This document shows positions 6,139-7,083 of a stretch of DNA of 33,428 bases, piece by piece. Location of the stretch: IMG/VR virus record IMGVR_UViG_2879759574_000002. One strand, 5' to 3'. How positions within the stretch are numbered: position 1 is the stretch's first letter; each line of letters begins with the position of its first letter. The notes beneath the pieces are model-generated. The model ran no database searches. It saw only the letters and a list, made by a program, of their open reading frames with translations, and was not told where the DNA came from. The position numbers and the translations under genes are program-made. Source of the stretch: a virus (taxonomy: Duplodnaviria > Heunggongvirae > Uroviricota > Caudoviricetes).

Positions 6139-6354
6139 ATGAAATCCATGGACAAAATTTCAACGGGCATTGCCTACGGCACCTCCGCCGGCAGTGCCGG
6201 CTACTGGTTTTTGCAGTGGTTGGATCAGGTCAGTCCATCACAGTGGGCTGCGATTGGTGTGCTGGGAAGTCTGCTTCTGGGGCTTCTGACTTATCTGACG
6301 AATCTGTATTTCAAAATAAGAGAAGATAAGCGTAAGGCTGCGAGAGGTGAATAA
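6139..6354 (+). CDS. Phage 21 S-type class II holin (pinholin) with dual-start motif
   Basis: [72 protein letters not shown]21-like; Met1 and Met4 give the antiholin/holin dual start; GGAGGTGAGG upstream. Confidence 0.85.
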
Positions 6355-6363
6355 TGTCGCCAT

Positions 6364-7083
6364 TGAAGTGGTCAACAAAAACTGGCCACCGAGTTAGAGT
6401 TTTTCCAGTATCGATTTTCCGATTCGTTTGGGGTAACCCACCGTTATATTCGTGCGGTCTTAGTGCGCTGTAATATCCAACGATATAGTCCGTTATGGCG
6501 TGAGCTGCCTCGCTGAAGCTTACGTAACCCACCACCGGCATCCATTCGTTCTTCAGACTCCTGAAGAAGCGTTCCATTGGGCTGTTATCCCAGCAGTTTC
6601 CGCGCCGGCTCATACTCTGTCTGATCTGGTATCGCCACAATAACTGCCGGAACTGCCTGCTCGTATAATGACTGCCCTGATCGCTGTGGAACATCACCCC
6701 GCGGGCTTACCACGGGTTTCCCATGCCATTTCCAGCGCTTTCATGGTGAGCCTGCTGTCCGGCGAGAACGACATGGCCCAGCCCACTGGTTTTCTTGCGA
6801 ACAGGTCGAGAACAACGGCGAGGTACGCCCAGCGCTTACCCGTCCAGATACAGGTCACATCACCGCACCACACCTGATTTGGCTCGGTCACGGCGAACTG
6901 CCTTTCAAGGTAGTTAGGGATAGCAACATGTTCATGACCACCACGTTTATTCCGGTGAGTCGGCTGCTGACAGCTGACCAGCCCCAGCTCTTTCATGAGC
7001 CTGCCAGCAAGCCAGCGTCCCATCTGGTAGCCTCTCCGGGTTGCCATTGTGGCGATGCTTCTTGCTCCGGCCGAACCATGGTA
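6364..7083 (-). mobile_element. IS911 partial copy (3-prime ~720 bp), inverted relative to the complete copy
   Basis: Plus strand begins TGAAGTGGTCAACAAAAACTGGCCACCGAG at 6364 (reverse complement of the IS911 right end); homology to copy A ends near 7083. Confidence 0.8.
6372..7083 (-). pseudogene. IS911 orfB fragment (N-terminally truncated; frame breaks relative to copy A)
   Basis: Track ORFs 6311..6697 and 6694..7110 carry OrfB sequence in two frames; versus copy A, GG vs G at ~6709 and C5 vs C4 at ~6386. Confidence 0.75.

Follow-up and report, generated by a model that had tools for sequence, protein, structure and literature searches.

The stretch of viral DNA analysed here (33,428 nucleotides of the record IMGVR_UViG_2879759574_000002; in the following, the window) contains an intact holin gene of the phage 21 S type that is enclosed by two copies of the insertion sequence (IS) IS911 and has lost its lysis partners. 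We consider it very probable that this locus is a dead late-control and lysis remnant of a lambdoid-type ipaH3 prophage, residing in a genome of the Shigella/enteroinvasive Escherichia coli (EIEC) lineage, and that the holin gene persists in it as a silent relic. Related prophages used for comparison are designated by L numbers where they need to be told apart.

The holin is identical in 68 of 71 residues (96%, over the full 71 residues) to S21-71 of phage 21, with three conservative substitutions (V46L, F49L and R64K), and in all 71 residues to RefSeq entry WP_000839570.1, annotated as 'class II holin family protein'. The Pfam family PF04971 (Bacteriophage P21 holin S) was detected with 121.8 bits (cut-off 26), covering profile positions 1–63 of 64. 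The open reading frame (ORF) is preceded by a ribosome-binding site, GGAGG, at 6127..6131, and begins with the dual start Met1-Lys2-Ser3-Met4 in the context MKSMDK, which is the same in phage 21, whose annotation carries the two products S21-71 and S21-68. Two transmembrane domains (TMDs) are predicted and the hydropathy profile can be superimposed on that of S21. TMD1 (residues 7–28) is weakly hydrophobic, with a mean Kyte-Doolittle hydropathy of 0.52 and 55% Gly, Ala, Ser or Thr, and resembles a signal-anchor-release (SAR) segment; TMD2 (residues 36–58) is hydrophobic (mean 1.53). Compared to S21, residues G40, G43, S44 and G48 are conserved, including the G40/S44/G48 set of TMD2, and the basic C-terminal tail has a net charge of +3. 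Judged from its sequence, the holin genuinely belongs to the phage 21 S family; the lysis system of which it was part is broken here. S21-68 forms small heptameric pinholes that depolarize the membrane (PMC9636201), and the 96% identity suggests that the holin of the window would be able to form such pinholes as well.

The cassette of phage 21 shares with the window the dual start, the Gly/Ala/Ser-rich TMD1, TMD2, the basic tail and a TAATG overlap between the holin stop codon and the endolysin start, and the ancestral gene order (Q, terminator, tRNA genes, S, R, Rz) is also the same. In contrast to phage 21, the window retains merely 10 nt of R, and Rz/Rz1, Q and the late promoter pR' are absent. 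Further differences are that the Q of the relatives (DUF1133) belongs to a family other than that of phage 21 Q, and that phage 21 has tRNA genes for Asn and Thr in place of the four tRNA genes of the window.

In the window, the TAATG overlap places the endolysin ATG at 6354..6356, and the nucleotides from there onwards, ATGTCGCCAT, coincide exactly with the 10 nt that open the R21-like endolysin gene following the same holin in relatives. In these relatives the full endolysin has 165 amino acids (aa) and is 95% identical to the SAR endolysin R of phage 21; of its two domains, the N-terminal SAR domain and the lysozyme catalytic domain, neither is present in the window. At 6364 the right inverted repeat (IRR) of IS911, TGAAGTGGTCAACAAAAACTGGCC, begins and leads inward on the minus strand. 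A pattern made of the holin end and the IS911 end matched once in the window and in 0 of 100 shuffled sequences. A preliminary description of this DNA had recognized an S21-type holin with the Met1/Met4 dual start and, overlapping its stop codon, an endolysin start cut off after three codons by an inverted partial IS911 at 6364. Comparison with S and R of phage 21, as it had proposed, and with relatives and IS911 bears this out, with the refinements that one further base follows the three codons, that the ATG begins at 6354 and not at 6355, and that the span given for the locus, up to 6372, includes the outermost 9 nt of the IS911. The junction is crossed by two chimeric ORFs: one of 39 aa (6354..6473, plus strand) begins at the endolysin ATG and continues into the IS911 end, and another of 128 aa (6311..6697, minus strand) consists of a C-terminal piece of OrfB of IS911, leaves the element through the IRR and runs antisense to the 3' end of the holin gene. 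When the chimeric ORFs that span the junction (128, 127 and 39 aa) were looked up for exact matches, no record of a called gene was returned from the public collection.

The IS911 copy adjoining the endolysin remnant is 99–100% complementary to the full-length copy at 4154..5402, and it lacks the left inverted repeat (IRL), orfA, the frameshift site and the first part of orfB, so that the IS3 transposase profile is represented by positions 144–364 only. It is a dead, one-ended fragment and not a mobile element. Its homology to IS911 ends at …CCATGG (7081), an inner end that is not an IS terminus. The junction reads …GCCGAACCATGG-TA-GGCTGAAATGGTAACAG…, where an intact IS911 would run on with CTGATGCC and where the phage gene on the other side starts with ATGGCTGAAATGG. 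The microhomology between ATGGCTGA of IS911 and ATGGCTGAAATGG of the phage gene, together with the two filler bases TA (7082..7083), indicates that this junction was generated by an illegitimate deletion and not by transposition. Compared with IS911 elsewhere in Shigella decay, the full-length copy of the window is canonical, and the holin-side copy is a 718-bp fragment with this microhomology and filler at its inner end. In the relatives L005 and L014 another 203 bp of the fragment are missing (6877..7079 of the window; 4740/4741 in L005 and L014), with a TG microhomology at the bounds; the IS911 remnant is still being eroded, and the window represents the older, longer form.

To the right of this junction, positions 7084..9684 of the window are 99.5% identical to structural genes that just 8 of the 5426 complete genomes of E. 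coli possess. In the ipaH3 prophage of E. coli FDAARGOS_943 (NZ_CP065615.1, 836–872 kb; EIEC/Shigella), which is the same prophage as that of the window and syntenic with it to ipaH, the distance from the tRNA–holin segment to the equivalent of 7084 is 10.66 kb on the same strand, including a 1.26-kb IS600, and the corresponding distance in RMDEC364 is 9.39 kb, also on the same strand. Window and FDAARGOS_943 or L013 are 98.5–99.5% identical in the tRNA–holin segment and 99.5% in the structural genes, and the holin protein is identical. The interval genes that are missing from the window encode a lysozyme, a 'lysis protein' (Rz), a 198-aa protein, the small terminase subunit, a 539-aa protein, a DUF1073 protein, a head morphogenesis protein, a DUF2213 protein, a Gp24-like (capsid-type) protein and a 342-aa protein. 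Measured against the syntenic ipaH3 prophages, the missing stretch thus amounts to about 9.4 kb and comprises the rest of R, Rz and the terminase, portal and head genes. Past the deletion, synteny continues through the tail and baseplate genes up to ipaH and is interrupted only by more IS elements. From synteny and distances it follows that a single ipaH3-type prophage comprised both the holin and the structural genes, and that about 9.4 kb of it have been deleted. FDAARGOS_943 itself has kept Q, pR', Rz and all head genes, and its R is split by an IS600 at about codon 37 (L001, 7057..8302), an independent inactivation, whereas the window has IS911 at codon 4 of R, the 9.4-kb deletion and the loss of Q.

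Since a displaced endolysin had been suggested as something to be sought, the whole 33-kb window was searched by tblastn with R21, with R and Rz of L013 and with the lysozyme of L009, a second lysozyme type; for none of them was a homolog found. Likewise, searches with Q of L013 and Q21 detected neither a Q homolog nor Q-proximal DNA in the window. All matches were at chance level, the best having an E value of 0.26. A Q-dependent cassette with SAR endolysin and spanins is found in L006, L007, L011 and L013 and not in the window. The preliminary description was therefore right that the lysis cassette is non-functional, 10 nt of R being left and Rz and Q being absent from the window. Its statement that an IS911 fragment destroyed the endolysin holds for the cut but understates the damage, because the deletion also took the remainder of R, Rz and about 9 kb that encode packaging and head proteins, and the IS911 is itself truncated.

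It might be argued that two inverted IS911 repeats, being classic sites of misassembly, were collapsed or joined wrongly and that an intact endolysin gene truly follows the holin; the indels in G/C homopolymer runs by which the window differs from relatives also suggest a noisy assembly. We regard such an artefact as extremely improbable. The junction of R with the IRR and the junction of the truncated IS911 with the head-proximal gene both recur base for base in L005 (GCA_900618175.1) and L014 (CP026834.1), two genomes that came from an exact look-up of the holin protein and that show the same succession of IS911, tRNA genes, holin, R remnant and IRR. These two differ from the window in the left flank, where an integrase-like gene lies beside an IS66-family element, and in the extra 203-bp deletion, and hence they are not the same assembly as the window. 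Moreover, the right junction lies inside the IS and not at a repeat boundary. An intact endolysin directly downstream in an alternative assembly, which would have overturned the preliminary description, was not found in L005 or L014, since both share the junction. L014 probably represents the Shigella dysenteriae ATCC 49347 chromosome, since CP026835.1, the accession that follows, is the plasmid of that strain. The gapped pattern of holin end and IS911 end matched the window, L005, L014 and L015, and neither this pattern nor the exact junction occurs in the GTDB species representatives or the JGI metagenome contigs.

Ten indels (6429, 6701, 7191, 7632, 7823, 7872, 8187, 8539, 8877 and 9866) separate the window from L005; every one falls in a G/C homopolymer run, and in nine cases it is the window that lacks a base. 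The ORFs 7882..8214 and 8211..8465, for example, correspond to a single 194-aa gene in L005. We considered whether the frameshifts in the IS911 fragment and in the head and tail genes reflect decay and rejected this, as such single-base homopolymer indels are probably sequencing errors.

On the other side of the holin, the full-length IS911 shares 99.9% identity across its 1249 bp with elements annotated as 'IS3-like element IS911 family transposase', and the annotated matches are on plasmids of Shigella dysenteriae and S. boydii. It has the canonical TGAAGTGG termini and is not surrounded by a 3-bp target duplication (CTG on the left, CAT on the right), as a simple insertion would be. Its left flank is a helix-turn-helix/replication-type gene of a lambdoid immunity region that maps to a different prophage in E. 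coli relatives, and its right flank is the late-operon leader. The missing target duplication and the outer flank, which differs in L005 and L014, indicate that this copy was involved in either a deletion or IS–IS recombination. Between the IRR tips of the two copies, which point toward one another at 5402 and 6364, lies a 961-bp island (5403..6363) that contains the terminator hairpin, the four tRNA genes and the holin gene. IS911 is one of five IS that have expanded in all Shigella species and in EIEC and that are rare elsewhere in E. coli, and Shigella chromosomes carry 229–348 IS insertions each (PMC7373316). The IS content of the window, with IS1, IS911, other IS3-family and IS66-family elements, fits Shigella.

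The loss on this side concerns late control. In two relatives, the match to the window from 5403 onward begins about 60 nt past the stop codon of a gene for a Q-family antiterminator (DUF1133), and the IS911 insertion point falls after the Q stop and before the terminator hairpin; in the window, the Q-side DNA is replaced by the full-length IS911. In phage 21, pR', the Q-binding element and the transcription start are located in the interval between Q and the terminator, after which the terminator, the tRNA genes and S follow. A distant search showed that other phages with a Q gene also conserve, as one block, the end of Q and the next 100 nt or so. By analogy, the late promoter of this prophage type would have been situated in the same interval. 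The hairpin at 5413..5443 has a folding energy of -18.9 kcal/mol (z = -4.9), none of 200 shuffled sequences was equally stable, and the relatives carry the same sequence; it can be interpreted as a tR'-type terminator of the late-operon leader.

The first of the four tRNAs, with anticodon CAT, is a tRNA-Met according to ARAGORN and a tRNA-Ile according to the RefSeq annotation of relatives. From the tRNA genes to the holin, Rfam detected only the four tRNAs, besides a sub-threshold match of the terminator hairpin to a Trp leader. The 292-nt spacer between the last tRNA gene and the holin gene (5847..6138) would form an unusually structured RNA (minimum free energy -89.1 kcal/mol, z = -3.3), with long hairpins at about 5853..5900 and 5907..5977; the spacer matched no Rfam family and may contain terminators or processing sites of the late transcript. 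A promoter-like sequence, TTTGCA-18-TATTAT (5497..5526), lies 9 nt before the first tRNA gene, is conserved in relatives and could be a tRNA promoter. The four tRNAs may still be produced although the front of the late operon is gone.

The features of the locus and its borders are listed below.

Features of the holin locus of the window and of the elements that border it
Feature	Position	Strand	Description
IS911, full-length	4154..5402	+	1249 bp; IRL TGAAGTGGCACACTG begins at 4154; IRR ends …TTGTTGACCACTTCA at 5402; IS3 transposase profile
Intrinsic-terminator hairpin	5413..5443	+	GAAAGAGCCCGC-UUUAU-GCGGGUUUUUUU; just 3' of the full-length IS911
Four phage tRNA genes	5536..5846	+	CAT, Arg-TCT, Thr-TGT, Gly-TCC (ARAGORN; Rfam tRNA 56–70 bits)
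Holin gene, class II, phage 21 S type	6139..6354	+	ORF intact, 71 aa, 216 bp; TAA stop 6352..6354
Holin starts	6139; 6148	+	S71 (antiholin) 6139; S68 (holin) 6148
R21-like SAR endolysin remnant	6354..6363	+	ATGTCGCCAT; start codon plus 7 nt (Met-Ser-Pro codons plus one base)
IS911, truncated	6364..7081	-	718 bp; IS positions ~530 to the IRR end; IRR tip adjoins the endolysin remnant
Head-proximal phage gene, homolog of WP_000829563.1	7082..7428	+	Position includes the TA filler, gene from 7084; first two start-codon bases missing; right end of the ~9.4-kb deletion

With no Q-modified polymerase and with a terminator directly upstream, the holin gene is most probably transcriptionally silent and without function. 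The sole new transcriptional input is read-through from the co-oriented full-length IS911, and this read-through meets the terminator. A promoter scan of 5300..6500 flagged two promoter-like sites, where 1.4 are expected from shuffled sequences, and no site spanned either of the IS911/flank junctions. As a candidate for a new promoter at the IS911 ends we considered the outward-facing TTGACC in the IRR; it was rejected by visual inspection because no usable -10 sequence is found at a distance of 16–18 nt on either side. L013 and the window share 99.5% identity in the segment 5402..6363, and intact R and Rz genes follow this segment in L013 and in other prophages. As constitutive expression of the holin would kill such lysogens, the 961-bp segment alone cannot drive lethal holin levels. 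In addition, 6085..6363 is the same base for base as in the intact cassette of L013, and the holin gene shows zero differences at the DNA level. Being identical to copies in intact cassettes, the gene has not had time to decay; its open frame is what would be expected under neutrality and gives no signal of selection.

The preliminary description had suggested instead that the holin may still be expressed and might be toxic or co-opted. Elaborated, this idea would have the orphan pinholin transcribed by IS911 read-through, from the tRNA-proximal site or under stress, and acting as a toxin or as a domesticated membrane-depolarizing module. The intact ORF, ribosome-binding site and dual start, the orientation of the left IS911 and the promoter-like site at 5497..5526 would all be compatible with it, and pinholins on their own are known to dissipate the proton motive force (PMC9636201). 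Nevertheless, we judge it very unlikely: Q and the promoter-proximal region are absent and the upstream terminator has been kept, the island fronts intact cassettes in lysogens and hence holds no strong constitutive promoter, the number of promoter-like sites is at chance level, and the holin DNA does not differ from that of intact cassettes. Furthermore, triggering by a pinholin requires about 7×10^3 molecules per cell (PMC9636201).

Some considerations weigh against the view of a silent relic. We infer the silence of the holin from the architecture of the locus alone. Transposase read-through from IS911 combined with imperfect termination could give rise to low-level holin transcripts, and the promoter-like site at 5497..5526, which matches in 9 of 12 positions, could feed some transcription toward the holin. 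Also, the consensus promoter scan did not flag pR' in the relatives, and the late promoter of this Q type was not pinpointed by it.

Another explanation for the survival of the island would be selection for the four tRNAs, which read AUA, AGA and similar rare codons, with the holin gene hitch-hiking. All four tRNAs are intact with good scores, a promoter-like site precedes the first of them by 9 nt, and the DNA on both sides of the island was deleted or exchanged. However, chance alone also leaves a 1-kb island between two IS copies, and an alteration of the fourth tRNA in one relative, where a 71-nt tRNA-Val is annotated, speaks against strict conservation. Selection for the tRNAs is in our view a very improbable account of the island and, as regards the holin itself, it is compatible with that of a silent relic.

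The structure of the silent relic is best explained by the following order of events. The ancestral prophage would have had the order Q, late promoter, terminator, four tRNA genes, S (pinholin), R (SAR endolysin), Rz/Rz1 and packaging and head genes. One IS911 end would have landed 10 nt into R, and a later illegitimate deletion, from inside this R-side copy to the start of the head-proximal gene, would have taken what remained of R, together with the spanin genes and morphogenesis genes amounting to about 9 kb. The other copy would have come to lie about 60 nt past the position of the Q stop, and exchange or deletion of its outer flank would have removed Q together with the late promoter. The holin ORF would then survive only because its 216 bp have not been hit yet.

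Cryptic lambdoid prophages of E. coli K-12 are known to keep S-type holin genes after lysis has been lost, as in the case of essD/rrrD/rzpD of DLP12 and essQ of Qin. The DLP12 holin retains its endolysin and spanin partners, while the holin of the window stands alone with IS911 on both sides. Among the few relatives fetched, many independent IS3-family insertions were observed in the control region of about 1.2 kb that extends from Q to R in S21-holin prophages of Shigella/EIEC. The lineage of the window has IS911 at two sites (5402/5403 and 6363/6364). L011 and L006 (about 2624..3886) have an IS600-sized insert at the equivalent of 6025..6028 of the window, with an IS911 nested inside it in L006. 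In E. coli VL7S7 (L015, 5113) an IS911 with the target duplication AAT lies 2 nt past the holin stop, and in E. coli O121 201805972 (L016, 5173) an IS911 lies 62 nt past it and the endolysin gene is missing. IS911 ends are thus found 2, 9 and 62 nt past the holin stop in three prophage contexts, in all three with the IRR toward the holin, and IS600 accounts for at least two more hits in this control region. One might propose that the stretch from the 3' end of the holin gene into the next gene is a preferred landing site of IS911, always with the IRR facing the holin, by which lysis cassettes of Shigella/EIEC are systematically defused and orphan pinholins perhaps retained or used, but we think it very unlikely. 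The recurrence of IS3-family elements between Q and R could be due to selection for loss of lysis, to target preference or to sampling.

The remainder of the prophage shows further IS-associated rearrangements. Two IS66-family elements of 2.4 kb (9682..12128 and 26889..29338) are inverted with respect to each other and 99–100% complementary; between them lie tail and baseplate genes, about 14.8 kb in all, and the left copy interrupts a DUF3383 (tail sheath-like) gene. A pair in this orientation could flip the intervening segment. The tail region is also interrupted by an IS1-like insert (13432..14201) and by an IS3-family element (about 21526..22850). An ipaH-like gene for a type III effector with LRR_TTSS/LRR domains (29336..31473, minus strand) occupies the right end of the prophage and is followed by pgl for 6-phosphogluconolactonase (32427..33428, plus strand), an arrangement that matches the ipaH3 prophage of FDAARGOS_943. 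The ipaH frame appears to be split into the ORFs 30169..31473 and 29729..30595, for which a homopolymer error could be responsible.

All components of the locus are already annotated in public genomes and IS-driven decay of prophages in Shigella is well described, so that the arrangement is not a new system. It represents one more route by which IS expansion grounded an ipaH-carrying prophage in the Shigella/EIEC lineage. The prophage has lost lysis, packaging and its head genes along with late-gene activation, while it has kept tail genes, tRNAs and the region of the effector gene. Genome annotations should label this holin an orphan within a defective prophage and should not take it as a sign of an inducible phage. 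Of mild interest is the repeated insertion of IS3-family elements in the control region across relatives, which could mean that loss of lysis is selected for or that the region is a preferred target.
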